From contig SCTI01000001.1 in NCBI GenBank assembly GCA_004297735.1, positions 115,467-179,466 on the forward strand: 64,000 bases of DNA. Direction: 5' to 3'. Source of the stretch: Patescibacteria group bacterium (lineage in GTDB: Bacteria > Patescibacteriota > Saccharimonadia > UBA4664 > SCTI01). The stretch's first letter is position 1. Each line of letters opens with the position of its first letter. Below the pieces are notes generated by a model. It searched no databases and was not told the origin of the DNA. It saw only the letters and a program-made list of their open reading frames with translations. The position numbers and the translations under genes are program-made. Shown in pieces: positions 2 to 61,334 of this stretch.

Positions 2-391
2 GTGAAGGTTTTTTACCTCAAAACCTGTAACGGCATGGGCGAAGTGGAGGTTCAACTGATCGCAATTGGCGCTGGCCGGTTTCGATACGTCTGGGACCCA
101 AGCGCCCAGGCGAATCGCTACGACGCCTGCCAGTTGCAGCAACTCTTTGACCGGGGCCGCCGCGCTGGCAGCCTAGACCCGGTTCAAGAAGACCGAGCGA
201 CACAGGGCTTCTACCGGTCTGGTCGTCGGCCAACACGCTGGATGATCGGGCAGCACGAGTTCACCGCGCAGGAGCTTACCAAGCTCCGCCTAAATCAGCC
301 CGGCTGGTTCGAGGTCCTGAGAGGCATCGGCAAGGATCTGCTCGCCGCGTTAATCGCGACGGTGAGTCCACGACGGCGGCACTGCAGCTGA
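2..391 (+). CDS. Hypothetical protein, 5'-partial (reading frame open to the window edge); GC-rich relative to the rest of the window
   Basis: ORF track 2..391, frame open from position 1. Diverse amino-acid composition, unlike the Arg/Gly/Pro-rich antisense frame. Local GC clearly higher than the neighbouring tig. Confidence 0.3.
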   Translation: MKVFYLKTCNGMGEVEVQLIAIGAGRFRYVWDPSAQANRYDACQLQQLFDRGRRAGSLDPVQEDRATQGFYRSGRRPTRWMIGQHEFTAQELTKLRLNQPGWFEVLRGIGKDLLAALIATVSPRRRHCS

Positions 392-402
392 CGTATCTAA
401 AA

Positions 403-430
403 CCCCGCTGCGACCAAGGTCGTGGCGGGG
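403..430 (+). terminator. Hairpin after the partial ORF (ccccgc ... gcgggg long stem); weak T-tract
   Basis: Inverted repeat ccccgctgcgac / gtcgtggcgggg seen directly. The trailing T-run is poor. Confidence 0.25.
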
Positions 431-486
431 ACTTTAGTTTATATAGCTCACAAATTGTCACGAATAGGTGGTTGGACGCAAATGGA

Positions 487-515
487 GTGACAAGCTCCCT
501 AATACCTGGTACAAT
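487..515 (+). promoter_or_regulatory. Sigma70-like promoter for tig (GTGACA -17- TACAAT); TSS about 8 nt before the ATG, so near-leaderless
   Basis: -35 gtgaca at 487-492, 17-nt spacer, -10 tacaat at 510-515. No RBS before the ATG at 524. Confidence 0.4.
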
Positions 516-523
516 CAGCACTT

Positions 524-1804
524 ATGAAAGCCGAAATTACCAATCAAACCGACAACCAAGTTACCTTAAAGATCGCTGCCACTGCCGATCAAATTAAACA
601 CGCGCTGGAGCACACTTATGACCACTACCGCCCCAAGGTAAAAGCCTCGGGTTTCCGGGCCGGTAAGGCACCAGATAATATTGTTGCTCGCGAGATTGGT
701 GATGAGGCGATTCAGGCCGAAACACTTGAGCACACCATGAGCCATGCTTATTCTGACGCGCTGGCAGAATACGACGTGGCGCCAATCGACCAGCCTAAGA
801 TCAACCTAATTAAATGGGTACCCTATGAGACTCTAGAGTTCGAGGCAACGGTTGAGGTGATGCCATCGGTTGATCTGCCAGATTACAAAAAGATTAAAAA
901 GGCAGTTAAGCCGGTTAAGATTGAATCGGCCAAGGTTGATGAAATGATTGAGGATTTGCGCCGCCGCGTGGCTAAGCGCATTCCGGCGCTTAATGCAGCC
1001 GCCATGGGTGATGAGGTTAAGATCGATTTTGAGGGCAAAAAAGAGGGTAAGATTATTGAGGGAGCGGTCAGTAAGAATTACACCCTCAAGCTCGGCTCAA
1101 ACACCTTCATCCCCGGCTTCGAAGAAGAGCTAGTTGGCGTTAAGGTTGGTGAGGGGAAAAGCTTTGAGGTAACCTTCCCTAAGGATTATCACGAAAAAAG
1201 TCTAGCCGGTCAGCCGGTCACCTTTAAGGTTAACGTACATGAGGTGACGCGATTAAAATTGCCCGAAGTAAATGACGAGTTCGCCGGTGAGGTTGGACCG
1301 TTCAAGACGGTAGCCGAACTAAAAGCCGATATTAAGGATCAGTTAAAAGCTGAGGCAGAAGAGTCGGCCAAGCGCGAATACGAAAATGAGCTGCTCGATG
1401 AAATTGCTGGCAAGGTTAAGTTTAAGGTGCCAGAAAAAATGGCCACCCAGCAGCTAGAGCGAATGAAGTCTGAGATTAGTCAGCGTTTAATGTCGAGCGG
1501 CATGACTATGGAACAATACCTAGAGATGCAGGGCAAAACTCAGGACGAACTTGAAAAAGAGCTACGCCCGGATGCCGAAAAGCGAGTTATTTTGTCCCTA
1601 GTATTGCAGGAAGTGGCCAAGGCCGAAAAGCTGACCGCGACCGAAGACGAGATTGAGGCTGAGCTGGATGCACTACGAATGCGTTATACCGACCCCAAAA
1701 TGCAAGAGCAGCTAAACAGCCATGATGTCCGGAACGACATCTTTAATCATATTCTCACCACCAAGACCATCGCTAAGTTGGTCGAGTACGCCCAAAAGAA
1801 GTAG
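524..1804 (+). CDS. tig: Trigger factor (ribosome-associated chaperone / PPIase)
   Basis: 426 aa with N-terminal ribosome-binding region, central FKBP-like segment and C-terminal arm. The classic tig-clpP neighbourhood is present. Confidence 0.9.
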   Translation: MKAEITNQTDNQVTLKIAATADQIKHALEHTYDHYRPKVKASGFRAGKAPDNIVAREIGDEAIQAETLEHTMSHAYSDALAEYDVAPIDQPKINLIKWVPYETLEFEATVEVMPSVDLPDYKKIKKAVKPVKIESAKVDEMIEDLRRRVAKRIPALNAAAMGDEVKIDFEGKKEGKIIEGAVSKNYTLKLGSNTFIPGFEEELVGVKVGEGKSFEVTFPKDYHEKSLAGQPVTFKVNVHEVTRLKLPEVNDEFAGEVGPFKTVAELKADIKDQLKAEAEESAKREYENELLDEIAGKVKFKVPEKMATQQLERMKSEISQRLMSSGMTMEQYLEMQGKTQDELEKELRPDAEKRVILSLVLQEVAKAEKLTATEDEIEAELDALRMRYTDPKMQEQLNSHDVRNDIFNHILTTKTIAKLVEYAQKK

Positions 1805-1810
1805 CTAAAA

Positions 1811-1969
1811 CTACTTCTTAGAGCCTTTTTTCTCAGCTTGAGACTGTTGCAGTTCAGACATGCGCTGATTTATTAATTGAAGGTTTTGCTTCGAAATCTC
1901 TAAACGCTGCAACTCGTCGTAGGCAAGCGCTTTTAACTTATCTATATCAGAAATTTGACTGAGATCCAT
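1811..1969 (-). CDS. Small hypothetical coiled-coil protein (52 aa), below the ORF-track length cutoff
   Basis: Minus-strand ATG at 1969 preceded by GAGGAG with 5-nt spacing. Translation MDLSQISDIDKLKALAYDELQRLEISKQNLQLINQRMSELQQSQAEKKGSKK, stop at 1811-1813. Convergent with tig. Confidence 0.4.
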   Translation of the reverse strand: MDLSQISDIDKLKALAYDELQRLEISKQNLQLINQRMSELQQSQAEKKGSKK

Positions 1970-2001
1970 AGTACTCCTCGAAGTAATCTGTTTAGTATGT
2001 C

Positions 2002-3870
2002 TTATAGTATATCAAACCAGGCGCCGTTGGCCGGAGCGGTAAATATCCAGCCAGTGTTGCCAGATACATTAGTGGAGTTGGCTCCGGCATACCAAGCTGC
2101 TCCTCCGGTGGCAGTTGAGTCTTGAATCGAAAGATAGTCGCAGCTTACCGTTCCACTTGATTTTGAGAGGGTAGCGGCTGAGCCCCCAGTAGAGCTGTTG
2201 ATTGTCATGAGCTTACCGGATGTTCCATTAACGTTAAACGCGCCCGTTATTGTGGTGGTAGTGCCACTAGTAAATTGAAGCGTCCTGGCGTTACTCGAGT
2301 CAGAGAAGTTGATGGTTCCAAAAGTGTTTGATCCGGTAATAATTAGGTTTCCAGTTGATCCGGCTAAAGTGTAGGTGAGAGTACCATATGTTTTATCTGC
2401 GCCGTTAAAAGTTCTGCTACTTGAGGTGGTCGTTGTGATGACAATAGTAGCACTACTTGAATTAACCACCGCGCCTGTACTAGTTACATTCCATACCGCA
2501 CTAGGAGATACCAGTGTCCCGGTTAGGGTCCAGGTGCCAGTTCCCATGTTAACGGTTGCTCCATTGTTAATCTGGTAGTTACCAATCGTGACATTATAGC
2601 TATTTGTTTCAAAGACCAAGCCAGATCCAACCGTTACTAAATTGTTCATCTGTAGCGCATCCTGCAAAGAGTATGTTGCGCCAGGTGCAGCTACCTGTCC
2701 AAACAAAGCCATGGACTTCCCGGCCGAGGTTATTGTATGTGAGCTCCGACCTGCAAGCGTAAAGGTAGTACCTCCATTTACTGTGCCGACATTTGTCAGG
2801 TTGAGGGAGCCATACATGAATGCTGTTGCAGTAACCGACCAGGTTGGGCTGCCGGAGCTTCCTGTCCAGTTTATGTCCTTACCGAGTCTTGGCATGTCTC
2901 CCGTAACTGTCTGACTCGCTGAGAATGCACTACTTATTACTACATTGTCTTGCGGTAGCGGCACACGGCTGGTCCATTTTGATACATCAGACCAGTTGCC
3001 TCCACTAGTGCCCTGCCAGGTTTGGGTAACCGAAGTGTCGAAAGTTATATTGCTGTTGCCTAGGCAGTTGCCTAGCGAAGTGCCAGTAAAAGGTATGGCT
3101 GCACCGCTTGCGTTAATGTCTCTAAAGTCAACATTGGTTAAGGATACCGATGCCGCGCTTACGGTGGCTGCAGAGCCTAGTGACAAAGATGTAGCGAGCA
3201 CCCTATTGGTAACACTATTGCCGGTAATAGTTAAAGTTCCAGTTACGATAGAGGATCCGCCGTTGAACTGGATGGTGTCTGTTTTCGCCGCCGTGCCAGT
3301 ACGGGTAAGGTTTTTGCACGTAAAGGTGTTTGCGACAATTGCCACACCAGAACCAGCCATAACAATAGATCCGCCATTAGTGTTAAAGCCAGAGCCACCA
3401 AACCAAGTCGAGGTAGCGCCATTTAGAGTAACGGTTGATGTGTTGGTGGTTACGGTAAGGTTGGTAAATGTACTTGTGTCCCAAGCAGTCCCAGTAGAGG
3501 TTAGCGTGATGGCGGAACTGCCCATTGTCAACGTACGAGCGCTGCTATTAGAAGATATTAGCTTGCCCCAGTTACAGGTTTGGCCATTTGCATTTAGGGT
3601 TCCAGTGGTAAGTGTGACTGCGCCCACCACGGTTGAACCAGCGTTGTGCAGTAAAGTTAGGTCAGACTTATTTATCGTAATGGTGTTGGCGTTGGCGGTT
3701 GCGCCAGTAATAGTTACGGTGGCGGCTGTGCCGGAGTTGCTGTCAAAGGTAACGTCGTCAGAAGATGTGGGTACTGACGCTCCACTCGAGCCCCCAGTGG
3801 TGGCGGACCAATGAGAGGTGTCCGACCCATCCCAGTTACCGCTACCTCCAACCCAAAAACGACTGGCCAT
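2002..3870 (-). CDS. Large Thr/Gly/Asn/Ser-rich repetitive protein (622 aa), beta-helix or adhesin-like passenger-type repeats; no signal peptide
   Basis: ORF track. Low-complexity repeats of the form TxTLTxTG...NGG. Its stop abuts the upstream gene at 3870/3871, so the two are co-transcribed. Confidence 0.6.
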   Translation of the reverse strand: MASRFWVGGSGNWDGSDTSHWSATTGGSSGASVPTSSDDVTFDSNSGTAATVTITGATANANTITINKSDLTLLHNAGSTVVGAVTLTTGTLNANGQTCNWGKLISSNSSARTLTMGSSAITLTSTGTAWDTSTFTNLTVTTNTSTVTLNGATSTWFGGSGFNTNGGSIVMAGSGVAIVANTFTCKNLTRTGTAAKTDTIQFNGGSSIVTGTLTITGNSVTNRVLATSLSLGSAATVSAASVSLTNVDFRDINASGAAIPFTGTSLGNCLGNSNITFDTSVTQTWQGTSGGNWSDVSKWTSRVPLPQDNVVISSAFSASQTVTGDMPRLGKDINWTGSSGSPTWSVTATAFMYGSLNLTNVGTVNGGTTFTLAGRSSHTITSAGKSMALFGQVAAPGATYSLQDALQMNNLVTVGSGLVFETNSYNVTIGNYQINNGATVNMGTGTWTLTGTLVSPSAVWNVTSTGAVVNSSSATIVITTTTSSSRTFNGADKTYGTLTYTLAGSTGNLIITGSNTFGTINFSDSSNARTLQFTSGTTTTITGAFNVNGTSGKLMTINSSTGGSAATLSKSSGTVSCDYLSIQDSTATGGAAWYAGANSTNVSGNTGWIFTAPANGAWFDIL

Positions 3871-39047: not shown

Positions 39048-39541
39048 TGCATCGCCACGGTTACAAAGGTCGTAAGTTACAGCGAGCCGCCGGTCCACGT
39101 CGGGCATTGGTGCGAGGTCAGATTACCTCGCTGGTGCTACACGAGCAAATTACGACTACCGTAGCCAAGGCCAAGGAGATCGCTCCTCAGTTCGAAAAAC
39201 TGGTTACCAAGGCTAAAAAGGGTGATTTGCACAATCGTCGTCTGATTCGGGCGGTGTTGCTGACCGATAAGGCTACCACTAAGTTGGTTGAGGAGATCGC
39301 ACCGGCGTTTAAGAATCGAGAAGGTGGTTACACCCGGATTGTTAAGTTGGGGAACCGACTAGGTGATAATGCACCTATGGCTGCGGTTATGTTAACCGAC
39401 AAGCCACAGCGCGTTGCCGAAAAGCCCAAGGCTAAGCCGGCTACCAAAAAGCCAGCAGCCAAGAAGGCGGAAGCCGACTCGGCTAAGGCTAAGAAGCCAG
39501 CCGCCAAAAAGGCACCAGCCAAGAAGGAGGCAGCTAAGTGA
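39047..39541 (+). CDS. rplQ: 50S ribosomal protein L17 with a Lys/Ala/Pro-rich C-terminal extension
   Basis: L17 core followed by a low-complexity KPAAKKA tail of about 45 aa. Confidence 0.93.
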
Positions 39542-52098: not shown

Positions 52099-53412
52099 AT
52101 GTCTGAACGCTGCCAAAATTGTGATTCAACAGATATAGTTGAAATCCAAGGACAGAAATTTTGTATCAACTGTGGTGAACCCTATACGGCACCGGCAGGG
52201 GGTTCGGTTTCGGTTAAGCCGGCGGTTAAAAAACAGCCTGATCCGGTGGCGGTAGCAACACCCGTGGCAATAAAGTCGGCTACTGGTGCTGGTAAACCAA
52301 AAGCGGTTAAAAAACCTGTTGCTGCCAAGCCAAAAGCACCCATCGAACCAAAGCTTAAGGAAGTTAAGGTGACAAAAAGAGCTGAGGCTGAGGTGAAGGC
52401 TGTACCGGTTAAGTCGGCCGCTGCTACCGACTCGGCTTTAGATCTACGCTACAGTACAACCGCCCAGCCAGCGGCTGCTCGAGCAACCCATCAGCCTGTT
52501 GCCCCAATAGCGCCACCGGCTCAAAAACAGGCTGAAACCAAGCTTGATGAGCCCAATCAGTCAACCAAGGAGCATAAGCTGCAGCCACCTACCGACACCA
52601 AGCCGCACCCATTTGGCTTTAGCTTCAAGGTGGCAACCTTGGTGGCAGTGCCTCTGGCGGCGATATTTGGAGCGATGGTCTGGTTTTTGATTGGCGTGGA
52701 TATTGTGCTTTACGCCGTAGTCGCTGCGGCTTTGTTAATTTTTGCGGTTTTGACCTTAGCGCAATCGGCAATCTTGTACGGCATGTCACGGGCCTCCGAT
52801 CATCGTCCGGTAGAGCGGAGGCAGTGGTGGTCGGCCGCTCGAAGCGGGTTTATGGATGTTGTTAACATCAACTTAATGACAGTAATTGTGGTCATAATAA
52901 CGGTATCGCTGGCAGCCGCTGGCTGGCAGGGGGTTGGCAGGCTTGGTTTGCCAGATTGGGCCGAAACCGGCTTGTTACTTGCGCTGAACGCGGTTGCGGC
53001 TTGGCTGCTACTAGGGGCCCTGGTGTCTCGCCACATTGCCATACCGGCAGCCATAATTGGCGGAATGAGCTCCACTCAAACCTATAAGTTGGGCTGGCGA
53101 ACCTTTGCCAAGGCTGGAGGCAGTCTATCGCTGGCTCTGATCAGGGCTTGGATAACCGGCATTTTGGTGGTGGTTGGGGCGGCAATTGCGGTGATTTACC
53201 TCAATCAGCATTTTTCGGAGTACAATCATCTGACCGTAACCCTGCTGGTAGCAGCAGCTACTTGGCTGTTCATCACCCTGCTGTTTGTGACTTCGTTGCA
53301 ACTCGAGTCGCGGATGTGGCTGCGGCAGTATCGCTACTGGGTGGCACGGTGCTTCCCGAGCCGTCAACTTCGCCTGCTGGCCGGCCGGGTCCAGACGCTG
53401 CGGCACCGTTGA
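52099..53412 (+). CDS. Membrane protein with an N-terminal zinc ribbon (CxxC...CxxC), a Lys/Ala/Pro-rich linker and about 6 TM helices
   Basis: Start at MSERCQNCDS... (ATG 52099), inside the track ORF 52063... Confidence 0.6.
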   Translation: MSERCQNCDSTDIVEIQGQKFCINCGEPYTAPAGGSVSVKPAVKKQPDPVAVATPVAIKSATGAGKPKAVKKPVAAKPKAPIEPKLKEVKVTKRAEAEVKAVPVKSAAATDSALDLRYSTTAQPAAARATHQPVAPIAPPAQKQAETKLDEPNQSTKEHKLQPPTDTKPHPFGFSFKVATLVAVPLAAIFGAMVWFLIGVDIVLYAVVAAALLIFAVLTLAQSAILYGMSRASDHRPVERRQWWSAARSGFMDVVNINLMTVIVVIITVSLAAAGWQGVGRLGLPDWAETGLLLALNAVAAWLLLGALVSRHIAIPAAIIGGMSSTQTYKLGWRTFAKAGGSLSLALIRAWITGILVVVGAAIAVIYLNQHFSEYNHLTVTLLVAAATWLFITLLFVTSLQLESRMWLRQYRYWVARCFPSRQLRLLAGRVQTLRHR

Positions 53413-53442
53413 CTTTTTCGATGGCTCATCTTATAATTGAGC

Positions 53443-53461
53443 AAAAGCCGCCGGGCTTTTT
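53443..53461 (+). terminator. Weak hairpin with a T-run before secE
   Basis: aaaagcc-gccg-ggctttt. Confidence 0.3.
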
Positions 53462-53517
53462 AAAATTGCCAAAAATATGAGCAAGAGCGCAACGCTGGCT
53501 TTGTCAAAAGGAGATCG

Positions 53518-53706
53518 ATGAATCGTTTGGTCACATATGTACAGCAGTCGTGGACCGAGCTACGCAAGGTGGTTTGGCCGTCGCGGCCATCAGCGGTTCG
53601 ATTAACCATTATCGTAGTGGTGTTCGCTCTAACCTTAGCCGTCTTTATTGGGGTGGTTGACTACATTTTTGGTCAGATTTTAAAGCAAATAATTCTTAAG
53701 GGATAA
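53518..53706 (+). CDS. secE: Preprotein translocase subunit SecE
   Basis: 62 aa single-TM protein, immediately upstream of nusG. Confidence 0.9.
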   Translation: MNRLVTYVQQSWTELRKVVWPSRPSAVRLTIIVVVFALTLAVFIGVVDYIFGQILKQIILKG

Positions 53707-53709
53707 GTT

Positions 53710-54249
53710 ATGACCGAGTCGACCGCAAACAAGCACTGGTACGTGATTCATACCTACTCAGGATATGAAGATCGAGTCGCCGAAAACATCAAGCAGCGTA
53801 TTGTCACCATGAACATGCACGACAAGATTTTTGATGTGATTGTGCCAAAAGAAAATCAGATTGAGATTAAGAACGGTCGTCGTCGCATTGTTGAGCGCCG
53901 CATCTTCCCAGGTTACGTACTGGTGCAGATGGATGTTACCGAAGACTCGTGGTTTGTAGTTCGCAACACCCCAAACGTCACCGGCTTTGTTGGCAGCGGA
54001 GTTACTCCAACCCCAATCGATCCGGATGAGGTGCGCCACATTCAGAAGCGCATGGGTGTTGAGGAGCCTAAGTACAAGATCGACTTCCACATTAATGAGA
54101 CGGTTAATATCGTTGATGGTCCATTTAAGGGCTTTGACGGCTCGGTCAATGAGATCGACGAGAGCAAGGGCAAGATTAAGGTACTAGTAAGTATGTTTGG
54201 CCGCGAGACACCGGTTGAACTCGATAGCTTGCAGGTTAAAAAGATTTAA
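53710..54249 (+). CDS. nusG: Transcription termination/antitermination factor NusG
   Basis: NGN domain plus a KOW motif. Confidence 0.95.
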   Translation: MTESTANKHWYVIHTYSGYEDRVAENIKQRIVTMNMHDKIFDVIVPKENQIEIKNGRRRIVERRIFPGYVLVQMDVTEDSWFVVRNTPNVTGFVGSGVTPTPIDPDEVRHIQKRMGVEEPKYKIDFHINETVNIVDGPFKGFDGSVNEIDESKGKIKVLVSMFGRETPVELDSLQVKKI

Positions 54250-54255
54250 GTTTAA

Positions 54256-54286
54256 GGTGGGAGGCTGATTAAGCCGTTTGCACCAC
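54256..54286 (+). promoter_or_regulatory. L1-binding-site-like mRNA leader motif upstream of rplK (GGTGGGAGGC-n5-AAGCCG-TTTG-CACCAC)
   Basis: A nearly identical motif recurs upstream of rplA at 54739..54767. Confidence 0.45.
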
Positions 54287-54298
54287 GAAAGGATTAAT

Positions 54299-54730
54299 AT
54301 GGCAGAGCAAAAGAAAGTTAAGGCAAACGTAAAGTTCCGTTTAGGAGCCGGTAAGGCTAGCCCAGCGCCTCCTGTGGGCTCAATTCTGGGTGCCCAGGGC
54401 GTAAACATGATGGAGTTTGTTAACGCCTTTAACGACCAAACCAAGGAGCTAGGGGATGTTCAGCTGGCGGTTAAGGTCACCATTTATGAAGATCGCAGCT
54501 TCACTTTTACCACCAAGGGTGAGCCAACCGCCGACATCATTCGTCGCACCGCTGGCATCCAAAAGGGCGCTGGCAACTCATTAAAAGAAGAAGCCGGCAC
54601 TTTAACTAAGTCGCAGGTGATGGAAATCGCCGAAAAGAAGATGCCCGATTTAAGCGCTAACGATCCGGAGGCTGCCTTTAAGGTGATCGCTGGTACCGCT
54701 CGCAGCATGGGCGTAAAAGTACAAGATTAA
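54299..54730 (+). CDS. rplK: 50S ribosomal protein L11
   Basis: Start at MAEQKKVKANVKF... (ATG 54299). Confidence 0.95.
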   Translation: MAEQKKVKANVKFRLGAGKASPAPPVGSILGAQGVNMMEFVNAFNDQTKELGDVQLAVKVTIYEDRSFTFTTKGEPTADIIRRTAGIQKGAGNSLKEEAGTLTKSQVMEIAEKKMPDLSANDPEAAFKVIAGTARSMGVKVQD

Positions 54731-54738
54731 TCAACAAC

Positions 54739-54767
54739 GGTGGGAGGCCGAAAGCCGCTTGAACCAC
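54739..54767 (+). promoter_or_regulatory. Second copy of the L1-binding-site-like motif, upstream of rplA (GGTGGGAGGC-n3-AAGCCG-CTTG-AACCAC)
   Basis: Aligned by eye with the motif at 54256..54286. Confidence 0.45.
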
Positions 54768-54775
54768 AGGAGAAT

Positions 54776-55783
54776 ATGATGGCAAAGAAGAAAGAAGAGA
54801 TCCAGAACGAAGAAATCGTTACTGACGAGCAGGTTGAAGCTCAGGCCGAGGCTGTAACTGACGAAGCTCCAGCCGATAACGCTGCCAAAGAAAACACCGA
54901 CGAAACCCCAGATGACACGGTTGATGAGGATAGCAAGCCTCGCACCACCAAGGCTGGTAAGCGCAGCGCTAAGGCTCAGCGAGAGGCCGACGAAGAAGAA
55001 GCCCGCAAAGAGGCCGCCAAAGAGGATAAAGAGGCTCCAGTAAAGCCTAAAATCGTTCACACGCCTAACCCAAAGAACCGTCACGGCAAAAACTACTTGA
55101 GCTCCCGTGAGCTGATTGAAGAGGGTAAGTTTTACGAGCTACCTGAGGCAATTGAGCTGGCAAAGAAGACCAGCAAGGTCAAGTTTGATGCTTCGGTTGA
55201 GCTGCATATGAACCTAGGAGTTGATCCTAAGCAGGCCGACCAGATGGTGCGTTCAACCGTGGTGCTTCCAGCTGGTACCGGTAAGACCATTCGCGTGGCC
55301 GTAATTGCTCCAACCGATAAGCATGCCGATGCCAAGAAGGCAGGTGCCGATATCGTCAGCGACGAAGCCCTGGTTGAGACCATTAGCAAGGGCAAGATTG
55401 AGTTTGATACCCTAATTGCCACCCCAGACATGATGGCCAAGCTCAGCAAGGCTGCTAAGGTGCTTGGGCCGCGTGGCTTAATGCCAAACCCTAAGAGTGG
55501 TACTGTGACTGCCAACGTAGCGCAGGCGGTTGAGCAGGCTAAGGCCGGTAAGGTTGAGTTCCGCATCGACAAGCAGGCCATTGTTCACCTGCCGGTCGGC
55601 AAGGTTAGCTTTGCGGATGACAAGCTGCTCGAAAACCTGACTACCGCTATTCAGGCGATCATGAAGGCCAAGCCGGCCGCCGCTAAGGGTACTTACGTCG
55701 AGGCGATCTCGTTGACCACCTCCATGGGCCCTGGCATCAAGATTGATGTCACCAAGGCAATTGCCGCCAGCAACAAACGCTAA
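54776..55783 (+). CDS. rplA: 50S ribosomal protein L1 with a roughly 100-aa acidic/Lys-rich N-terminal extension
   Basis: Start at the ATG ATG 54776 after an AGGAG RBS. The L1 core runs from about KPKIVHTPNPKNRHGKNYL onward; the preceding 100 aa are low-complexity E/D/K/A-rich. Confidence 0.9.
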   Translation: MMAKKKEEIQNEEIVTDEQVEAQAEAVTDEAPADNAAKENTDETPDDTVDEDSKPRTTKAGKRSAKAQREADEEEARKEAAKEDKEAPVKPKIVHTPNPKNRHGKNYLSSRELIEEGKFYELPEAIELAKKTSKVKFDASVELHMNLGVDPKQADQMVRSTVVLPAGTGKTIRVAVIAPTDKHADAKKAGADIVSDEALVETISKGKIEFDTLIATPDMMAKLSKAAKVLGPRGLMPNPKSGTVTANVAQAVEQAKAGKVEFRIDKQAIVHLPVGKVSFADDKLLENLTTAIQAIMKAKPAAAKGTYVEAISLTTSMGPGIKIDVTKAIAASNKR

Positions 55784-55804
55784 AACTACTTTTTAGATCA
55801 TCAA

Positions 55805-55827
55805 GCCGCCCGGTTGGGCGGTTTTTG
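55805..55827 (+). terminator. Rho-independent terminator after rplA
   Basis: gccgccc-ggtt-gggcggt followed by ttttt. Confidence 0.7.
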
Positions 55828-55899
55828 ATCGGGTAACTGTATTTGACTCGGATCTTTTTGAGTAAAACTATTTAGACTTTTTGACTCAAATTGGCTGTG

Positions 55900-56214
55900 T
55901 AAAACTACGTGTGCGCCCAGAGCGCACCCACACGTCGCAGCTGCTTCAAAGGTAATTAGCCCTGCTTCGTGCAGTCGGGGGCTGTAGTACCGGAATGTTC
56001 CGCCGACGTTCGGTGTAAAACGTCGGCCTGTAGGTTGAAGGTTTAACCCTGCTACCGATCCTTGCCGATGGCGAGGCGTTGTGTGCCAGTAGTGGCCTCA
56101 ACACCCATGTGCTTAGACTCTTGTTCTCTTCTGACGAGCGGTCGCAGCACCCAGTATTCTTACTCCTCCGGTAGCCCCCGGCTGATTACTGGCTTCTACG
56201 ATCTAGGAGCAAAC
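55900..56214 (+). ncRNA. Candidate structured non-coding RNA immediately upstream of the RT gene (retron msr-msd-like or DRT-type ncRNA candidate)
   Basis: GC-rich, about 315 nt, no credible ORF. Perfect hairpins gtgcgc-ccaga-gcgcac (55911-55927) and gccgacg-ttcggtgtaaaa-cgtcggc (about 55996-56026). Long-range inverted repeat cagtcgggggctg (55972-55984) / agcccccggctg (56173-56184), 11/13 complementary. Confidence 0.4.
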
Positions 56215-57258
56215 ATGCCCCTTCACAACACCGGCCAGCTTGAGCTTGAGCTGGAAGCGTTGATGGAGGAGCCGCTGTTTCACTCCTTCATCCATAAAGA
56301 TGTAAATCGACTCTCTGGAAACGTTAAGTTTCGGCGGGTTTCAGCGCCCAATAAAGCGATGCGCAAGATTCACTTGCAGATTCGAGCGGCGTTGAGCCGG
56401 CTTGATGTTGAAATGCCATACGTCACCGCTGGGCTTCGCAAATCCAAAGTGGTCAACCACGTCAAGGCACATCGTGGCAATCAGTACCTGTGTTGCTATG
56501 ATCTGAAGGCCGCGTATGATCACGTCCGGCCAGAAGCGATGGCTGACATCTTGCGCCAACATGGGTTGCCGGAGTCAGACATTGAACTTGTAGCTCGATA
56601 CTGCTTCGGTAATGAAAGCGGTGGATTGGTGACGGGTGGGCTGGTTTCAGTTCAGCTGTTCAACCTGTACGCCAATGAGGTAATCGACCAGCCGCTCGCA
56701 ACGTTGTTTGCCGAGCGAGGCGGCATCACCTATACCCGTTACATTGATGACCTGATTATCTCCTCGGGTGCTCCGATCGGGAGACGGTTCCGTAGGTCGA
56801 TCCTGCAAATCATTCGGGCGGCTGGGTTCGAGATCAAGCCGGCTAAAACACAGCTAATTGATCTGGCGGCCGAGCATAGTCAGATGGCGGTACTCAACGG
56901 GATTGGGCTCGACCTGAACGGCGAGCTGCACGTAAGGCCGCATTATCGCGAACTGCTCTACAGGCTTATCAAGAGAGCTCAGGCAGGAGAGATTGACCCG
57001 AGTGTCGTCCACGGGTGCATGGGGGCGTTTTACGTCATCAAGCCGCGTGGGCAGCAAATGACTCCAGGCGAGCGCAAGCTGGATCGAGCCTATCGCTGGT
57101 ATGTTAATCAGCAGCGGCGAGCAGATCCTGGCCGACCCGAGCGCCGGAGGCGCAAGCAGCAGCAGTATCGCGCCCGGCGACGACTCAAGCCAAGCTATAA
57201 GCGGCATGGTCGCCGTAGCGGACCGGTTGGCACGTACCGACCAAGACCGACTTTTTAA
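56215..57258 (+). CDS. Compact reverse transcriptase (347 aa; RT domains 1-7, YIDD active site, no maturase/endonuclease domain, Arg-rich C-terminal tail)
   Basis: Motifs: KFRRVSAPNKAMRKIH (1), CCYDLKAAYDHV (2), GGLVTGGLVSVQLFNLYANEV (3/4), YTRYIDDLII (5), GFEIKPAKTQLI (6). Start placed at ATG 56215 with an upstream TAGGAGC RBS. The track ORF begins at 56062, but that N-terminal stretch is Cys/Ser-rich low-quality sequence overlapping the structured RNA. Confidence 0.75.
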   Translation: MPLHNTGQLELELEALMEEPLFHSFIHKDVNRLSGNVKFRRVSAPNKAMRKIHLQIRAALSRLDVEMPYVTAGLRKSKVVNHVKAHRGNQYLCCYDLKAAYDHVRPEAMADILRQHGLPESDIELVARYCFGNESGGLVTGGLVSVQLFNLYANEVIDQPLATLFAERGGITYTRYIDDLIISSGAPIGRRFRRSILQIIRAAGFEIKPAKTQLIDLAAEHSQMAVLNGIGLDLNGELHVRPHYRELLYRLIKRAQAGEIDPSVVHGCMGAFYVIKPRGQQMTPGERKLDRAYRWYVNQQRRADPGRPERRRRKQQQYRARRRLKPSYKRHGRRSGPVGTYRPRPTF

Positions 57259-57259
57259 C

Positions 57260-57287
57260 CCCGCGCGTGGTAGCCACTACGCGCGGG
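57260..57287 (+). terminator. Hairpin immediately after the RT stop (cccgcgcgt-loop-acgcgcggg); weak T-tract
   Basis: 9-bp GC-rich stem seen directly. Confidence 0.4.
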
Positions 57288-57421
57288 AGTTTCGTTTAAT
57301 GAATAAATTATGTGTCTGCTACTTGGCTTTAATAACTGGTATTATTCCGCCCTCAAACCTGGTTTAATCAATATTTAATTATGTTTTGGCAGACTGTATT
57401 GTATTAAATAAGGACGCAGAA

Positions 57422-57625
57422 ATGGGGGCAGAAAAAGTATCGTTTGAGGGGGTTCTAGAGCGGTTGCGAGATGTTGAGGTTAAGTTTGAAAACCTTAGGG
57501 CTAACACTGAGGGCATTACAAAAGACATCCTGGCAGATACCAATAATATGCCAACGTACGAAAGAAGACTCAAGAAGCTGGAGTCAGCAGTTGCGGTGCT
57601 GCAGCGGCTTAAACAAAGGAGGTAA
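57422..57625 (+). CDS. Small coiled-coil protein (67 aa), first gene of a translationally coupled pair downstream of the RT
   Basis: ATG 57422 with an AAGGA RBS. Its stop TAA lies inside the AAGGAGG RBS of the next gene. Lower GC than the RT. Confidence 0.45.
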   Translation: MGAEKVSFEGVLERLRDVEVKFENLRANTEGITKDILADTNNMPTYERRLKKLESAVAVLQRLKQRR

Positions 57626-57628
57626 TAT

Positions 57629-57955
57629 ATGAGCCAGAAAGTTTTCACCTACAAAGGGATTACTATTGATATTGATAGCCCGAGAGATAGTTCCATTTTT
57701 CGTTTGATACCAGTAGAAAAAGTTGATAGTGAGTGGCGCAGTCTGCATTGGGGGTACCAGTGGTACCGCAGTCGCTTGGCGATTGCGTTGAGATTGTGGG
57801 GGATGAATGACGAAGCTAAGGAGACTTTCGAGAAGCTTATTGAGATTGAAAATAACGTTAAAGATGGCTATGTCCCTCCATATGACCGTGCAGCTGAAGA
57901 AAGGAAGGAGCACGAAGAGTACATAAAAGCCGTCTTTGGTTCGGTCCAGAGTTGA
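57629..57955 (+). CDS. Small hypothetical protein (108 aa), second gene of the coupled pair
   Basis: AAGGAGG RBS 7 nt upstream. Confidence 0.5.
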   Translation: MSQKVFTYKGITIDIDSPRDSSIFRLIPVEKVDSEWRSLHWGYQWYRSRLAIALRLWGMNDEAKETFEKLIEIENNVKDGYVPPYDRAAEERKEHEEYIKAVFGSVQS

Positions 57956-57980
57956 CAAACATCGGTTCAACAGATACAAT
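57952..57980 (+). promoter_or_regulatory. Consensus sigma70 promoter for rplJL (TTGACA -17- TACAAT)
   Basis: ttgaca at 57952-57957 and tacaat at 57975-57980. Confidence 0.6.
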
Positions 57981-57984
57981 CATT

Positions 57985-58117
57985 GAGATTACTGAAGACC
58001 GGAGCGGCCGCAAAGCTTAATCAGCTCCCGAGGTACATTAGATTTCATGCTGCGTTCATGAATATTTAATGAGACGTCTTCGGCTAATCGCCGAATTTTT
58101 TGTTTTTGGAGACCAAG
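57985..58117 (+). promoter_or_regulatory. L10 (rplJ) leader with an attenuator hairpin (ttcggc-taatc-gccgaa + ttttttgttttt at 58079..58107)
   Basis: Structured 5' UTR of about 130 nt in the position of the L10(L12)4 autoregulatory leader. Confidence 0.5.
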
Positions 58118-58648
58118 ATGGCAATTACTCGACAGCGAAAAGAAGAGACCGTAGCTCAGCTCCAGGATACCCTGGGACAGCTAAAGTTAATGGTAATGAC
58201 CGACTACCGTGGTTTAACGGTGCCGGAAATTACTGAGTTGCGTGGTAAGCTTCGCGATTCGGGTGTGAACTACTCGGTTACCAAAAACACCCTGTTACGG
58301 ATTGCGGCGAAGAACACGCCCAACCTAGCAGACATCGACCCAGCAACCTTTACCGGCCCGATGGCTTTGGCCATTTCGACCGAGGACGAGGTTGAGCCAG
58401 CTCGCGTGGTATTCCAGTACGCCAAAGAGCACAAGGCGCTCGAAATCGTTGGTGCTATCACCGGCGACGGACAGCTACTGAGCCCAGCCGAGGTTAAGGC
58501 GCTGGCAACTCTACCGACTCGCGAGCAGCTTATTGCTCAGGTGGTTGGCACGATTGCCGCACCTTTGAGTGGTTTGGTTGGTGTAATGGGTGCCAATGTT
58601 CGCGGTATTGTTACCGTACTCAACGCAATTAAAGAAGCAAAAGAATAA
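58118..58648 (+). CDS. rplJ: 50S ribosomal protein L10
   Basis: Start at [10 protein letters not shown] (ATG 58118). Confidence 0.93.
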
Positions 58649-58658
58649 GGAGGCCATC

Positions 58659-59099
58659 ATGGCAGAGGAAGTAAAAGAGACCCCAGCAGTAGAAGCTGCA
58701 GAAGAGAAAAAAGAAGTTCCAGCTAAGTTTAAGGACTTGGTTGAGCAGATCGACAAGCTGAGCGTACTTGAGCTGAGCGAGTTGGTTAAGGTACTTGAGG
58801 ATCACTACGGCGTGTCCGCAGCTGCACCAGCAGTTGCTGTAGCCGCAGCTCCAGGTGCAGGTGGCGACGAAGCCGCCGCCGAGGAGAAGAGCGCTTACAC
58901 CGTGGTTCTGGCTGCTGCAGGCGACCAGAAGATTAACGTCATCAAGGCGGTTCGCGAGATTACCGGCCAGGGCCTGGCTGAAAGCAAGGCATTGGTTGAT
59001 GGTGCTCCTAAGCCAATTAAGGAAAACGTTCCTAAGGCTGAGGCCGAAGAAGCTAAGGCTGCCCTTGAGGCCGCTGGTGCAACTGTAGAGCTTCAGTAA
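58659..59099 (+). CDS. rplL: 50S ribosomal protein L7/L12 with an N-terminal extension of about 20 aa
   Basis: ATG 58659 after an AAGGAGG RBS. The C-terminal domain is canonical ([28 protein letters not shown]). Confidence 0.93.
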
Positions 59100-59194
59100 A
59101 CAAGCTCCTGCTAGCGTCAAAGTAAAGCTTCTTACCAGAAGCTCAGGCGGCAAACTTTGACGTTAGCCTGTCTTCATGATTCAATAAGTATAAT

Positions 59195-59737
59195 TTGGTA
59201 TACCAAAACAAAAGGGTACAACCTGTGACCGACATTGCCGATAAACAACTCAAAACTCTCAAAAAGCTAATAGAACAGGCTGAGACCAACCTGGCCGGGG
59301 CCAAAGAGCTGCTTGCCAGCTTGGTCGGCGACGACGAGACGGTGGCGCCAAGCCGTACCGTAGCCGAGGTTACCGGAAAGGTAATGGAGGGTCGTTTTGA
59401 CGGCGAGCGAATGATTGGTCCAGATGGCAAGCCATATTCGGTGCCGGCCAACTACGCCTCAAAATCAAAGCTAGTTCAAGGCGATGGCCTTAAGCTGACC
59501 ATTGGTGATGATGGTTCTTTCTTGTATAAGCAGATTTCTCCAATTGCCCGTCGCAAGGTGATTGGTACGCTCAACCTTAAAGATGGCCAGTATTATGTTG
59601 AATATCAGGGTCACGACTATCGAGTTTTGTTTGCCAGCGTTACCTACTATAAGGCGCAACCTGGTGATCAGGTAACCATTGTGATCCCCGAAGAGGGTGA
59701 GGCCGACTGGGCCGCAATCGAGGCCGTCCTCGTCTAG
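59195..59737 (+). CDS. Hypothetical protein (180 aa) between rplL and dnaX
   Basis: ORF track; TTG start; no recognisable motifs. Confidence 0.45.
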   Translation: MVYQNKRVQPVTDIADKQLKTLKKLIEQAETNLAGAKELLASLVGDDETVAPSRTVAEVTGKVMEGRFDGERMIGPDGKPYSVPANYASKSKLVQGDGLKLTIGDDGSFLYKQISPIARRKVIGTLNLKDGQYYVEYQGHDYRVLFASVTYYKAQPGDQVTIVIPEEGEADWAAIEAVLV

Positions 59738-59825
59738 TAGTTATCCCCAGATTGTGTACAACTGCCATCTGGAAAATATAGGTTAGCGGCGCTATACTGG
59801 TGTTAGTAGTAAGTAGGGGTTTAAC

Positions 59826-61334
59826 GTGTCTCAGGTGGCCTGGTATCGCAAATACCGCAGCCAAAATTTTGATACCGTGTTGGGGCAGCAGCAGGTGGTA
59901 GAAACCTTACGCTCGGCAATCGCTAGCGATCATCTTAGCCATGCCTACCTGTTTACTGGCCCCAGAGGGGTTGGTAAGACGAGCGTGGCAAGGTTGCTAG
60001 CCCGGGCGGCTAACTGTACCGCCACAGATCCGGCTCAGCGCCCCTGTGGCACTTGCGACAACTGCAAGGTTGAGATTGGTAGCCACCTGGACTTGATCGA
60101 GATAGATGCCGCCAGCAATCGCGGTATTGATGATGCCAGGGCGCTACGCGAAAAAATTACCAGTGCGCCTTCGATGGGTCGCTATAAGGTGTATATTATC
60201 GACGAGGTGCACATGTTGACCACCGAAGCTTTTAATGCCCTGCTCAAGACGCTAGAGGAGCCACCAGCACATGCTATTTTTATTCTGGCCACAACCGAGG
60301 CTCACAAGCTACCCGAAACCATCGTATCGCGAACTCAAAACTTTCGTTTTAGGGCGATCGGCACCAAAGATATGCTGGCCCACCTGCGCTACATCGCCGA
60401 TCAGGAAAAGGTGGCGATAGATGATGGCGCTTTAGAGCTAATTGCAACCACCAGCCAGGGCAGCTTTCGTGATGCAATCGGCATGTTGGATCAAGCAGCA
60501 AACAGCGGTTTAGCGCAGCTCGATGCGGTGGCTTTGCGGCAGCTACTAGGCCATTCTGACCCTGAGCTGGTGCAGTCAATTGTTGGGGCTATAGACGAAA
60601 GTAATGCTAAAGGCTTGCTAGCAGCCATAGATGAGGCTCAAGCTGAAGCCGCTCAACCAGCCCAGTTGGCCCAACAGCTGGTTGGAGTGTACCGGGCGCG
60701 AGTTCGTAGCGCCGCGGCGGCTAACCAAGATGACGCCGGTTTAGGCGAAGCAATTTGGGCGATTGAGCTACTGCTCCCGGTTTTAAAGTCACCTTGGCCT
60801 CAGCTGGCGCTCGAAGCGGCTTTGCTGCGGTTGATTAAAGGTCAGCCCGAGCTAGCTAGTAAGCCACGATTAACGTCGACTCGCAGTTCAAAAGCGCAGT
60901 CAATCAGCCCGACTCAAACTGAATCTAATGCTTCACCGGCGAGCTCAGAGGCCAAAAAAGATGACGCTCAACCGGCGCCATCAACCGGTTCGGCTCAATA
61001 TAGCGATGAGCTATGGATGAAGGCGTTAACCCACATTAAGCAGCGCAACAACTCGCTATACGCCTTACTGCGCTCATCTTGCGCGGTGGAGTTCAGGGAA
61101 AACAACGAAGTGGTGTTGGCCTGTCGTTTTGGGTTTCACCGCGATCGGTTGAAAGAAACCAAGAATAAGCAGGTTATTGAGCAGGCTTTAGCCAAGGTGT
61201 ATGGGACAAAGTTTACGGTTCTGCCTCAGCTTGAGACCCGACAGGCATCAGCGGCTCCAGCGCCAACACCGGCACCGGAAGCTGAACTGGTGGCCTCGGC
61301 TCTTGAAATTCTTGGTGGCGAGGTGGTTTCATGA
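59826..61334 (+). CDS. dnaX: DNA polymerase III subunit gamma/tau
   Basis: GPRGVGKTS Walker A, a zinc module (CGTCDNC) and a SRT motif. GTG start. Confidence 0.9.
   Translation: MSQVAWYRKYRSQNFDTVLGQQQVVETLRSAIASDHLSHAYLFTGPRGVGKTSVARLLARAANCTATDPAQRPCGTCDNCKVEIGSHLDLIEIDAASNRGIDDARALREKITSAPSMGRYKVYIIDEVHMLTTEAFNALLKTLEEPPAHAIFILATTEAHKLPETIVSRTQNFRFRAIGTKDMLAHLRYIADQEKVAIDDGALELIATTSQGSFRDAIGMLDQAANSGLAQLDAVALRQLLGHSDPELVQSIVGAIDESNAKGLLAAIDEAQAEAAQPAQLAQQLVGVYRARVRSAAAANQDDAGLGEAIWAIELLLPVLKSPWPQLALEAALLRLIKGQPELASKPRLTSTRSSKAQSISPTQTESNASPASSEAKKDDAQPAPSTGSAQYSDELWMKALTHIKQRNNSLYALLRSSCAVEFRENNEVVLACRFGFHRDRLKETKNKQVIEQALAKVYGTKFTVLPQLETRQASAAPAPTPAPEAELVASALEILGGEVVS

Follow-up and report, generated by a model that had tools for sequence, protein, structure and literature searches.

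The 64,000-nt stretch of the Patescibacteria contig SCTI01000001.1 analyzed here (positions 115,467 to 179,466; referred to as the window) carries a gene for a reverse transcriptase (RT) of 347 aa (56215-57258, + strand) within a ribosomal protein operon with the gene order secE-nusG-rplK-rplA-[RT]-rplJ-rplL, in which rplA (54740-55783) lies to the left and rplJ (58100-58648) to the right of the RT gene. Upstream of the RT gene and on the same strand, the region 55909-56189 is, as judged from sequence comparisons, a conserved structured noncoding RNA (ncRNA) of ~280 nt that was missed in an earlier annotation made from the DNA alone (the original prediction). Because the ncRNA ends 25 nt before the RT gene and terminators flank both sides, one directly after the RT gene and a second after rplA, the ncRNA and the RT gene form a compact unit. 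The evidence presented below supports that the ncRNA (55909-56189), a retron-type RT (56215-57258), and the terminator (57260-57287) probably make up a self-contained, retron-like retroelement. All features are listed in Table 1. Contigs with RT relatives are labeled L001 to L109, of which L001 to L004 are the closest, and related proteins have P-numbers.

Classification of the RT

The 347-aa open reading frame (ORF) matches Pfam RVT_1 with an E value of 1.5e-19, is identical to a protein in a public collection (P0001), and contains both sequence features that the original prediction had quoted, i.e., LVTGGLVSVQLFNLYANEV and the Arg-rich tail RRADPGRPERRRRKQQQYRARRRLKPSYKRHGRR. To place it in its family, we aligned 27 RT relatives from a protein database, reference genomes, and a full HMMER scan. 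In this alignment, the catalytic residues Asp96 and Y176-I-D-D179 are intact in the window RT and invariant across the family, and the Arg-rich tail of 47 aa is limited to the close subfamily. From its sequence, we conclude that 56215-57258 encodes a genuine RT with an intact active site. The start codon also appears secure from the comparison of homologues. A Shine-Dalgarno (SD) sequence of the type (U/C/A)AGGAG is kept 5-7 nt before the ATG in the window, L001 to L004, and L105, and UAGGAGCAAACAUG is present in the window and L002. A longer RT starting from a TTG at 56062 was considered and rejected because the SD sequence and the ATG are conserved, indels in homologues break the extended frame, and the database protein has 347 aa.

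The original prediction had left the class of the RT ambiguous and proposed a classification using hidden Markov models (HMMs). In that classification, retron RT profiles were far ahead of those for other classes in both PADLOC and NCBIfam. Among the best 25 PADLOC models for the window RT, 24 describe retron RTs and 1 a CRISPR-associated RT, while none is a DRT, UG, or Abi model. The top model was RT_VI (E value 4.6e-25; 86 bits vs 70 for the next model), followed by III-A and II-A. The top NCBIfam match was retron_St85_RT with 77 bits, which is under the family cut-off. Membership of the UG/DRT family was not supported in NCBIfam (Drt2, 22.8 bits with a cut-off of 390; Drt3a, 19.2 bits with a cut-off of 200), and neither was that of the group II maturases (TIGR04416, 29.6 bits with a cut-off of 300); likewise, Rfam returned no match to a group II intron RNA in 53000-60000 at an E value of ≤1. 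A sequence search of the PDB gave nine matches, all of which are retron RTs (Ec83, Ec78/Eco7, Ec86, and Ec67). We also built an AlphaFold2 (AF2) model on the family alignment (mean pLDDT, 83.8) and compared it with the PDB using Foldseek. Ranks 1 to 18 were all occupied by retron RTs (E values of 4.5e-15 to 1e-10), below which DRT9, a group II RT, and DRT2 were found, and the solved RT of a diversity-generating retroelement (DGR) had rank 44 (E value 8e-8). Retron RTs are marked by NAxxH in region X and VTG in region Y, of which the H and the G are the most conserved residues (Mestre et al. 2020, PMC7736814). The window RT has HVKAH and LNG; within the family, region X reads N[AV]xxH in most members, region Y is either I[NT]G or LNG, the more distant members retain the forms N[AV]xxH and I[NT]G, and His86 and Gly229 are invariant in the 27 family members. 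Together, sequence and predicted fold support that the window RT is a retron-type RT.

The motif 4 region aligns ungapped across the family and gives the consensus GLxTG-GPA-SP-DLF-N-LY (core TGGPASPDLFN) with the canonical S-P, and the window RT reads GLVTG-GLV-SV-QLF-N-LY. At the positions of S-P-D, the relatives have S-P-D, A-P-E, A-T-Q, or A-T-R; the position of the Pro is occupied by Val in the window and by Thr or Pro in close relatives. DGR RTs have the signature [I/V/L]GxxxSQ, in which Gln replaces the Pro of QGxxxSP (PMC7826257). The original prediction had correctly observed that this Pro is absent from the window RT, Val being found in its place, but its reading of a DGR-like S-x-Q turned out to be a register error: because the ungapped family alignment sets the register as T-G-xxx-S-P-xxx-N, the first residue is Thr instead of I/V/L, Val is at the Pro site, and the Gln lies one residue too late. 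The change from Pro to Val in motif 4 is, from the alignment, specific to this lineage and not convergent with DGRs. We note that a missing Pro in motif 4 is an unreliable indicator of a DGR unless a family alignment fixes the register.

A profile of the close subfamily matched 280 cluster representatives (50% identity) among 1.84 billion at E values of ≤1e-30. Among reference genomes, 16 of the best 18 RT loci are titled as Patescibacteria lineages, and lineages with the RT include Saccharibacteria, Berkelbacteria, Harrisonbacteria, Paceibacterota, and Parcubacteria. The other two are metagenome-assembled genomes, one an unclassified "bacterium" (L014) and one labeled Gammaproteobacteria (L017). 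A full-text search of the literature returned no paper on retrons of Saccharibacteria, Patescibacteria, or the candidate phyla radiation (CPR) beyond census listings. Variations on the RT gene were seen at three loci. L105 carries two family RTs tail to tail, at 215-1159 (+) and 1225-2232 (-), the second of which shares 30% identity with the window RT. In L026 (3926-5200) and L027 (4004-5251), the RT has a C-terminal extension with a DnaG-primase-like zinc-finger pattern of the CHC2 type (CPxHxEKTxSF...CFGCxxHGD), which was recognized by eye.

A structured RNA upstream of the RT gene

In all close relatives, the RT gene is preceded by 350-500 nt without genes. RNAalifold and single-sequence folds of this region converged on one ncRNA architecture with fold z-scores of -4.4 to -6.2, and the same architecture was obtained when L108 was folded independently. 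With five aligned sequences, 92.5% of the cells at paired positions can pair, and 15 pairs show compensatory changes, compared to 6.1±2.1 in shuffled alignments and 2-7 in controls in which the structure was slid along the alignment. With seven sequences, the corresponding numbers are 93.7% of the cells and 14 compensatory pairs vs 6.2±1.8; this value was not attained in any of 500 shuffles, and the slid controls gave 2-6. Because G-U pairs are abundant and A-C cells scarce, the ncRNA is assigned to the + strand, i.e., the strand of the RT gene. An ncRNA on the minus strand, which would have the canonical order of a conserved msr followed by a variable msd, was considered and is contradicted by the same frequent G-U pairs and rare A-C cells on the + strand.

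The predicted RNA is closed by the long helix P1, the two arms of which bracket the hairpins P2 to P5, and an outer pairing joins GUAAU (55952-56) with AUUAC (56185-89). In P1a, 96.6-100% of the cells are paired with compensatory changes in four to six of its pairs. P2 is the variable part, with two hairpins in the window and one to four hairpins in roughly 40-140 nt in homologues. In P3, 98-100% of the cells are paired, and 5 of the 7 bp have changes on both sides. In P4, eight of nine pairs are without variation among the window and L001 to L004, despite RTs that are only 44-84% identical, and the block CCUUGCCGAUGGCGAGGCGUUGUGYGCCAGUAGUGGCCUCAAC spanning P3 and P4 is near-identical between elements with RTs that are 62-84% identical. 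P5 has ~14 bp and adjoins the 3' arm of P1, and its loop is kept in L105 and L108; by its position, P5 is the one hairpin that might be the template and have an msd-like role. At the 5' end, L002 and L004 form hairpins at the positions of P0 from different sequence. The sole open frame over the ncRNA is the RT frame extended to the TTG mentioned above, and the indels in homologues argue against coding. Upstream of the RNA, the region with TTGACTC repeats is regarded as a tentative candidate promoter because a scan with the sigma-70 consensus did not call it.

To trace the ncRNA further, we used a covariance model (R1) that covers the 3' domain only and has a partly wrong automatic consensus structure. 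This model detected the ncRNA directly upstream of the RT genes of L105 and L108 (40-45% RT identity) with E values of about 1e-5, and in L106, the GGGGGC...GCCCCC helix is retained with unchanged spacing. Neither this model nor nhmmer added copies beyond RTs of ≥40% identity. Similarly, a scan of JGI metagenomes for the exact pattern of the P4 core gave 0 matches, and a protein-guided metagenome scan returned distant relatives only. Conservation and covariation of the ncRNA extend to every relative with an RT identity of about 40% or more. A search of the region against Rfam, using both gathering scores and an E value of ≤1, identified no family for the ncRNA, no retron msr, and no group II RNA; only an L10 leader and tRNAs were found. 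Based on these observations, the ncRNA is a candidate for a new, uncatalogued RNA family.

Two further observations concern this RNA and its relatives. The SD sequence AGGAG of the RT gene can base-pair with either the conserved P5 loop (CUUCU core) or the sequence CUUCUA at 56193-56198. This pairing hints at translational autoregulation of the RT; the hairpin that includes the SD sequence is not conserved in L001 or L003. Moreover, distant RTs with 31-37% identity (L015, L058, L060, L062, and L066) share the upstream motif ACUCA(A/U)GUAGUG, located 140-190 nt upstream of each RT gene (e.g., L015:3700-3900 and L058:390-560). The hairpin that follows this motif covaries (GGGA/UCCC vs GCGA/UCGC; UCUCU/AGAGA vs AUUCU/AGGAU vs ACCCU/AGGGU) and has a GA(C/A)(A/C) loop. 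The AGUAGUG core of the motif recalls the P4 loop of the window (CCAGUAGUGG), and GTAGT is present upstream of 15 of 41 RT genes, compared to 8 for the reverse strand and 3 for a coding control. The wider RT lineage may, as far as these sequence motifs go, share an ancestral ncRNA.

The variable island between rplA and rplJ

In blastn comparisons with the sister loci, the flanks of the unit show 80-83% identity, which ends at about 55827-55837 on the left and resumes at 57952-57972 on the right. Within this 2.1-kb island, L004 is without nucleotide similarity to the window, and L002 lacks 57291-57951. Divergence of the RT is paralleled by that of the RNA, and both evolve much faster than the housekeeping genes on either side: the sister RTs are 44-84% identical to the window RT and the ribosomal proteins 90-98%. 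Between the window and L004, the identities are 96% for L10, 98% for L11, 95.5% for NusG, 90% for L1, and 75% for DnaX, compared to 44% for the RT, and the two ncRNAs are barely alignable. The window, L001, L002, and L004 all have the unit between rplA and rplJ; in L003, it is directly upstream of rplJ with thyA instead of rplA on the other side. The cargo of the island also changes: the window and L001 contain two orphan ORFs and L004 a dCTP-deaminase-like gene, and L002 and L003 are without cargo. The island shows the pattern of a fast-evolving or often replaced cassette. Such a pattern is seen in defense islands and is by itself no proof of defense.

The dCTP-deaminase-like gene of L004 (4114-4893, - strand; Pfam DCD, E value 7e-30) is in the rplA-rplJ island on the opposite strand; dCTP deaminases are known anti-phage effectors. 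In L005 (4450-4540) and L008 (1-90), the RT-ncRNA unit follows right after a tRNA gene and a terminator hairpin, the latter being different in each of these contigs, which suggests that these sites represent another insertion hot spot. A phage origin of the unit was considered and rejected, as a phage collection contained one weak RT match (29% identity) and no match to the ncRNA. At the right border, the L10 leader scores 43.6 bits in Rfam with a gathering score of 44, and routine annotation would, therefore, overlook it.

The two small ORFs in the window follow the RT terminator, and the second starts 4 nt after the stop codon of the first. The 79-aa ORF has a 47% identical homologue of 81 aa at the same place in L001 and is absent from L002, L003, and L004; the 108-aa ORF has a 61% identical homologue in L001. 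The GC content of the 79-aa ORF is 41-44% vs 52-62% in the RT gene. Neither ORF matched a family in Pfam, PADLOC, NCBIfam, or PHROG. The 108-aa ORF is annotated as a hypothetical protein at NCBI, found only itself in a word-indexed search of 5.8e9 proteins, and gave a poor single-sequence AF2 model (pLDDT, 57.5). Characterized retrons are tripartite and include a linked effector. For the unit described here, candidate effectors could be the 79-aa/108-aa pair, which is present in the window and L001 only, a factor encoded elsewhere, or the cDNA or ribonucleoprotein (RNP) itself.

Table 1. Features of the RT-ncRNA unit and its surroundings (window coordinates; MFE, minimum free energy)
Feature	Position	Strand	Basis or remark
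Variable island, RT-ncRNA unit and changing cargo, 2.1 kb	55838-57951	.	From rplA terminator to rplJ promoter/leader
Candidate promoter, two copies of TTGACTC-N13/14-TAAAACTA	55844-55907	+	Read from sequence; tentative
P0, 5' hairpin before ncRNA core	55909-55933	+	MFE folds
ncRNA core	55937-56189	+	Conserved in L001 to L004, L105, L106, and L108; 3' end 25 nt before RT ATG
P1 closing helix, 5' arm	55972-55994	+	P1a 55972-55983, bulge GUAGU 55984-55988, P1b 55989-55994
P2, variable hairpin region	56002-56055	+	Alignments; independent folds of window and L108
P3 hairpin, CCUUGCC-GAU-GGCGAGG	56060-56076	+	7 bp
P4 hairpin, GUUGUGUGCCA-GUAG-UGGCCUCAAC	56078-56102	+	Near-invariant sequence
P5 hairpin, covarying stem, pyrimidine-rich loop (UCUUCUUCCGA type)	56109-56150	+	Candidate msd-like template by position
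Single-stranded CCCAGUA	56150-56156	+	CAG invariant in 7 sequences
P1 closing helix, 3' arm	56167-56184	+	P1b 56167-56172, P1a 56173-56184
Shine-Dalgarno sequence AGGAG	56205-56209	+	5 nt before RT ATG
RT, retron-type, 347 aa	56215-57258	+	ORF translation, profiles, family alignment, AF2 model
RT motif 4 (GLVTGGLVSVQLFNLY)	56623-56670	+	Within RT ORF
RT YIDD	56740-56751	+	Within RT ORF
RT Arg-rich tail	about 57115-57255	+	Within RT ORF
Intrinsic-terminator-like hairpin	57260-57287	+	12 bp, 9 GC, directly after RT stop
Small ORF, 79 aa, predicted helical	57386-57625	+	Variable cargo, possible accessory or effector
Small ORF, 108 aa	57629-57955	+	Starts 4 nt after 79-aa ORF stop
rplJ promoter, TTGACA-17-TACAAT	57952-57980	+	Right border of island, outside the system
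L10 leader (RF00557)	57974-58110	+	Rfam 43.6 bits, gathering score 44

A probable retron-like unit and its alternatives

The unit resembles retrons as described by Mestre et al. 2020 (PMC7736814) in the sequence and predicted fold of the RT, an upstream ncRNA on the same strand with terminal inverted repeats, an RT start within 25 nt of that RNA, conserved hairpins compatible with recognition by the RT, a covarying hairpin beside the 3' arm, and a variable locus as is typical for defense loci. In particular, the P1 closing helix agrees with the expectation for retrons that the ends of the ncRNA are paired (a1/a2) on the RT strand, and it is supported by covariation. The unit differs from retrons in that it has no conserved effector, no long msd stem, no recognizable conserved branching G or opposing G pair, degenerate RT motifs, an Arg-rich tail of 47 aa, and Patescibacteria as hosts, in which retrons are rare. 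By analogy with retrons, on which all steps of the following model are based, the RT would bind P3 and P4 as msr-like recognition elements, and the P1 closing helix would serve as an a1/a2-like priming platform. The RT would then copy the 3'-proximal RNA (P5 and its flanks) to a small cDNA that would be kept with the RNA and the RT, with the Arg-rich C-terminal tail adding contacts to nucleic acid. The resulting RT-RNA-cDNA complex would act in anti-phage defense, and judging from its family and its variable locus, the RT-ncRNA unit is most likely a phage-defense module.

Several observations weigh against a retron-like element. A typical retron RNA has an msr of one to three hairpins followed by one long msd stem-loop. 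The ncRNA in the window has five to six hairpins (P2a, P2b, P3, P4, and P5 being the named ones) and no single long msd stem. A G (G55984) follows P1a in five of the six sequences with an alignable 5' arm (A in L108), but the opposite residue at the inner end of P1 is U, A, or C and never G. Because the alignment may be imperfect, the missing pair of branching G residues lowers the probability that the unit belongs to the retrons but does not exclude it. Since the RNA is non-canonical in these respects (five to six hairpins, no long msd, no G pair), the synthesis of msDNA or cDNA from it is putative and deduced by family analogy. Similarly, the role in defense is deduced solely from family membership and the variability of the locus. 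In the window RT, the retron motifs are degenerate (HVKAH for NAxxH, LNG for VTG, and YIDD for YADD), and the HMM scores assign no retron type: RT_II-A is the top model for the relatives P0006 and P0009, with many types only a few bits apart. Finally, clustering of the proteins encoded next to the RT in 28 loci (the window and L001 to L027, with L054 to L109 left out) gave no cluster common to these loci, and a Pfam search of the scanned RT neighbors returned nothing recurrent.

The original prediction had put forward two alternatives, i.e., a DGR with a distant target and a non-DGR defense-type RT with a motif convergent on that of DGRs. For the latter, the defense-type RT outside the DGRs agrees with our data, and the convergence does not, given the lineage-specific change from Pro to Val. 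The former is not supported by motif, profiles, and structure or, within the window, by repeats, accessory gene, and template. We consider it very improbable that the unit is a DGR with its target gene beyond the window and the upstream region as template repeat (TR), even though DGRs account for ~80% of the RTs in CPR bacteria (PMC8632793), motif 4 is without the canonical Pro and has a Gln close by, and the search space was only 64 kb of the genome. The signature [I/V/L]GxxxSQ is not present (TGGLVSV in the window, with the Gln out of register), while the family consensus has the canonical S-P; in addition, the solved DGR RT is far down the Foldseek list (8e-8 vs 4.5e-15 for retron RTs), and the PDB sequence matches include none. 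The original prediction was right that the upstream region is not rich in adenine, being in fact poor in it (AT skew, -0.16 to -0.18), and that no repeat of it is seen in the window, the latter as confirmed by an exact-seed search and an adenine-tolerant scan. In that scan, 60-nt segments of both intergenic flanks of the RT gene were compared on both strands with the 64 kb, counting mismatches at non-adenine template positions, and no 60-nt segment with ≤6 such mismatches, i.e., no pair of a TR and a variable repeat (VR), was found within the window. Instead of an A-rich template, this region contains a conserved and covarying folded RNA, and no ORF neighboring the RT gene had a Pfam match to an Avd-type accessory protein. 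What the locus shares with DGRs is a small RT with a non-canonical motif 4 in a CPR genome. The other hallmarks of DGRs (their motif signature, a TR/VR pair, an A-rich template, and an accessory gene) were not found, and as far as the 64-kb window goes, a DGR is effectively excluded. That the unit is instead a divergent type VI retron, in which the module of a helix-turn-helix (HTH) protein and a small protein was lost or replaced by the downstream 79-aa and 108-aa pair, strikes us as quite improbable. Type VI retrons normally consist of an ncRNA, a small-protein toxin (SP; 75-79 aa), an HTH antitoxin (91-110 aa), and the RT (bioRxiv 10.1101/2025.10.22.683967, 10.64898/2026.04.27.721009), and the sizes of the two ORFs would fit SP and HTH. 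RT_VI leads the PADLOC models by 16 bits and recognizes each of the 27 family members with an E value of ≤1e-5, and the published census files one CPR RT (Levybacteria, Mestre-729) under type VI and lists about 22% of type VI entries without HTH. However, no HTH gene is located upstream of or overlapping the RT gene in the window, whereas 24 of 24 Bacteroidota type VI loci have one (a 96-aa HTH overlapping the RT gene); a comparison of the 108-aa ORF with the HTH profile of type VI showed them to be unrelated (hhalign probability, 1.5%); and the small ORFs lie beyond the RT terminator, have a lower GC content than the RT gene, and do not occur in L002, L003, and L004. Moreover, identity between the window RT and a true type VI RT (P0010) amounts to only 28%, and the relatives P0006 and P0009, as mentioned, prefer another model. 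An SP toxin ORF within the structured RNA (hyRNA) was not found in the upstream region, which shows RNA-type conservation with frame-breaking indels. In common with type VI retrons, the RNA is long, multi-armed, and closed by distant inverted repeats, and members of that type often yield no detectable msDNA in E. coli; the window differs by having neither an HTH antitoxin nor an SP toxin inside the RNA, and the published Levybacteria ncRNA has no sequence similarity to the window RNA as judged by eye only.

Two readings have in common that the unit would function without a separate effector. According to one of them, the unit is an RT-ncRNA defense system similar to DRT2 and DRT9, with an RT still of retron descent, in which the cDNA itself is the effector; this cDNA would take the form of long DNA, either repetitive or homopolymeric, or of a de novo gene, with no pair of msDNA-antitoxin and toxin. 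We consider this reading, the main rival as to mechanism, unlikely. The RT is not a member of the UG/DRT family by sequence, as described above, and the "endless" stop-free frame on the circularized inner RNA is present only in the window and L003; the inner length is not a multiple of 3, and the frame is interrupted by stops in L001, L002, L004, L106, and L108. In its favor, only the RT and the ncRNA are conserved, and the 40 or more clustered or scanned loci have no recurrent partner gene; a long closing helix joins the ends of an RNA of template size, as in the DRT2 ncRNA; and in the structural comparison, the RTs of DRT9 and DRT2 come next after those of retrons. The unit, therefore, matches DRT2 and DRT9 in its two-part organization of an RT and an upstream ncRNA with no separate effector, but its RT is outside the UG/DRT family by HMM, and it has no endless-ORF signature. 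The other reading, which is possible though doubtful, is a distinct effector-less type specific to Patescibacteria that would consist of an RT and a non-canonical multi-hairpin ncRNA, with the reverse-transcription product or RNP itself as immune effector or sensor, and would be exchanged as a cassette at a fixed hot spot beside the rplJ leader of ultra-small genomes. If true, this type would functionally be nearer to DRT2 and DRT9 than to toxin-antitoxin retrons. An RT and an ncRNA without a linked effector are also found in the orphan retrons of the Retron-Eco5 (Ec107) branch, for which trans factors or a different mechanism have been discussed (Mestre et al., PMC7736814). That branch differs in that it belongs to another RT clade and has a canonical msr-msd ncRNA; in PADLOC, the window RT scores 56 bits with RT_Ec107-like vs 86 with RT_VI.

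A retron-like unit, thus, probably remains the best description of the locus. The genomes of Patescibacteria (CPR) are very small, few defense systems are recognized in them, and the great majority of their RTs belong to DGRs. A sizeable retron-like lineage in these bacteria, one that has an uncatalogued ncRNA of its own and lacks a linked effector, would extend what is known of retron anatomy. With about 1.45 kb, the unit is also a compact candidate for asking whether a retron-type RT acts without a toxin partner.

Outside the unit, we made two minor observations. The L1 protein in the window has an N-terminal extension of ~115 aa (54740-55100) that is acidic and Lys-rich, giving a total of 347 aa, and the L1 products of the sister loci (321-330 aa) have the same N-terminal extension. 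At 39434-39534, the window contains repeats with a period of 15 nt that encode Lys/Ala/Pro-rich units of the KPAAKK type, which may represent a histone-H1-like or other basic low-complexity tail.

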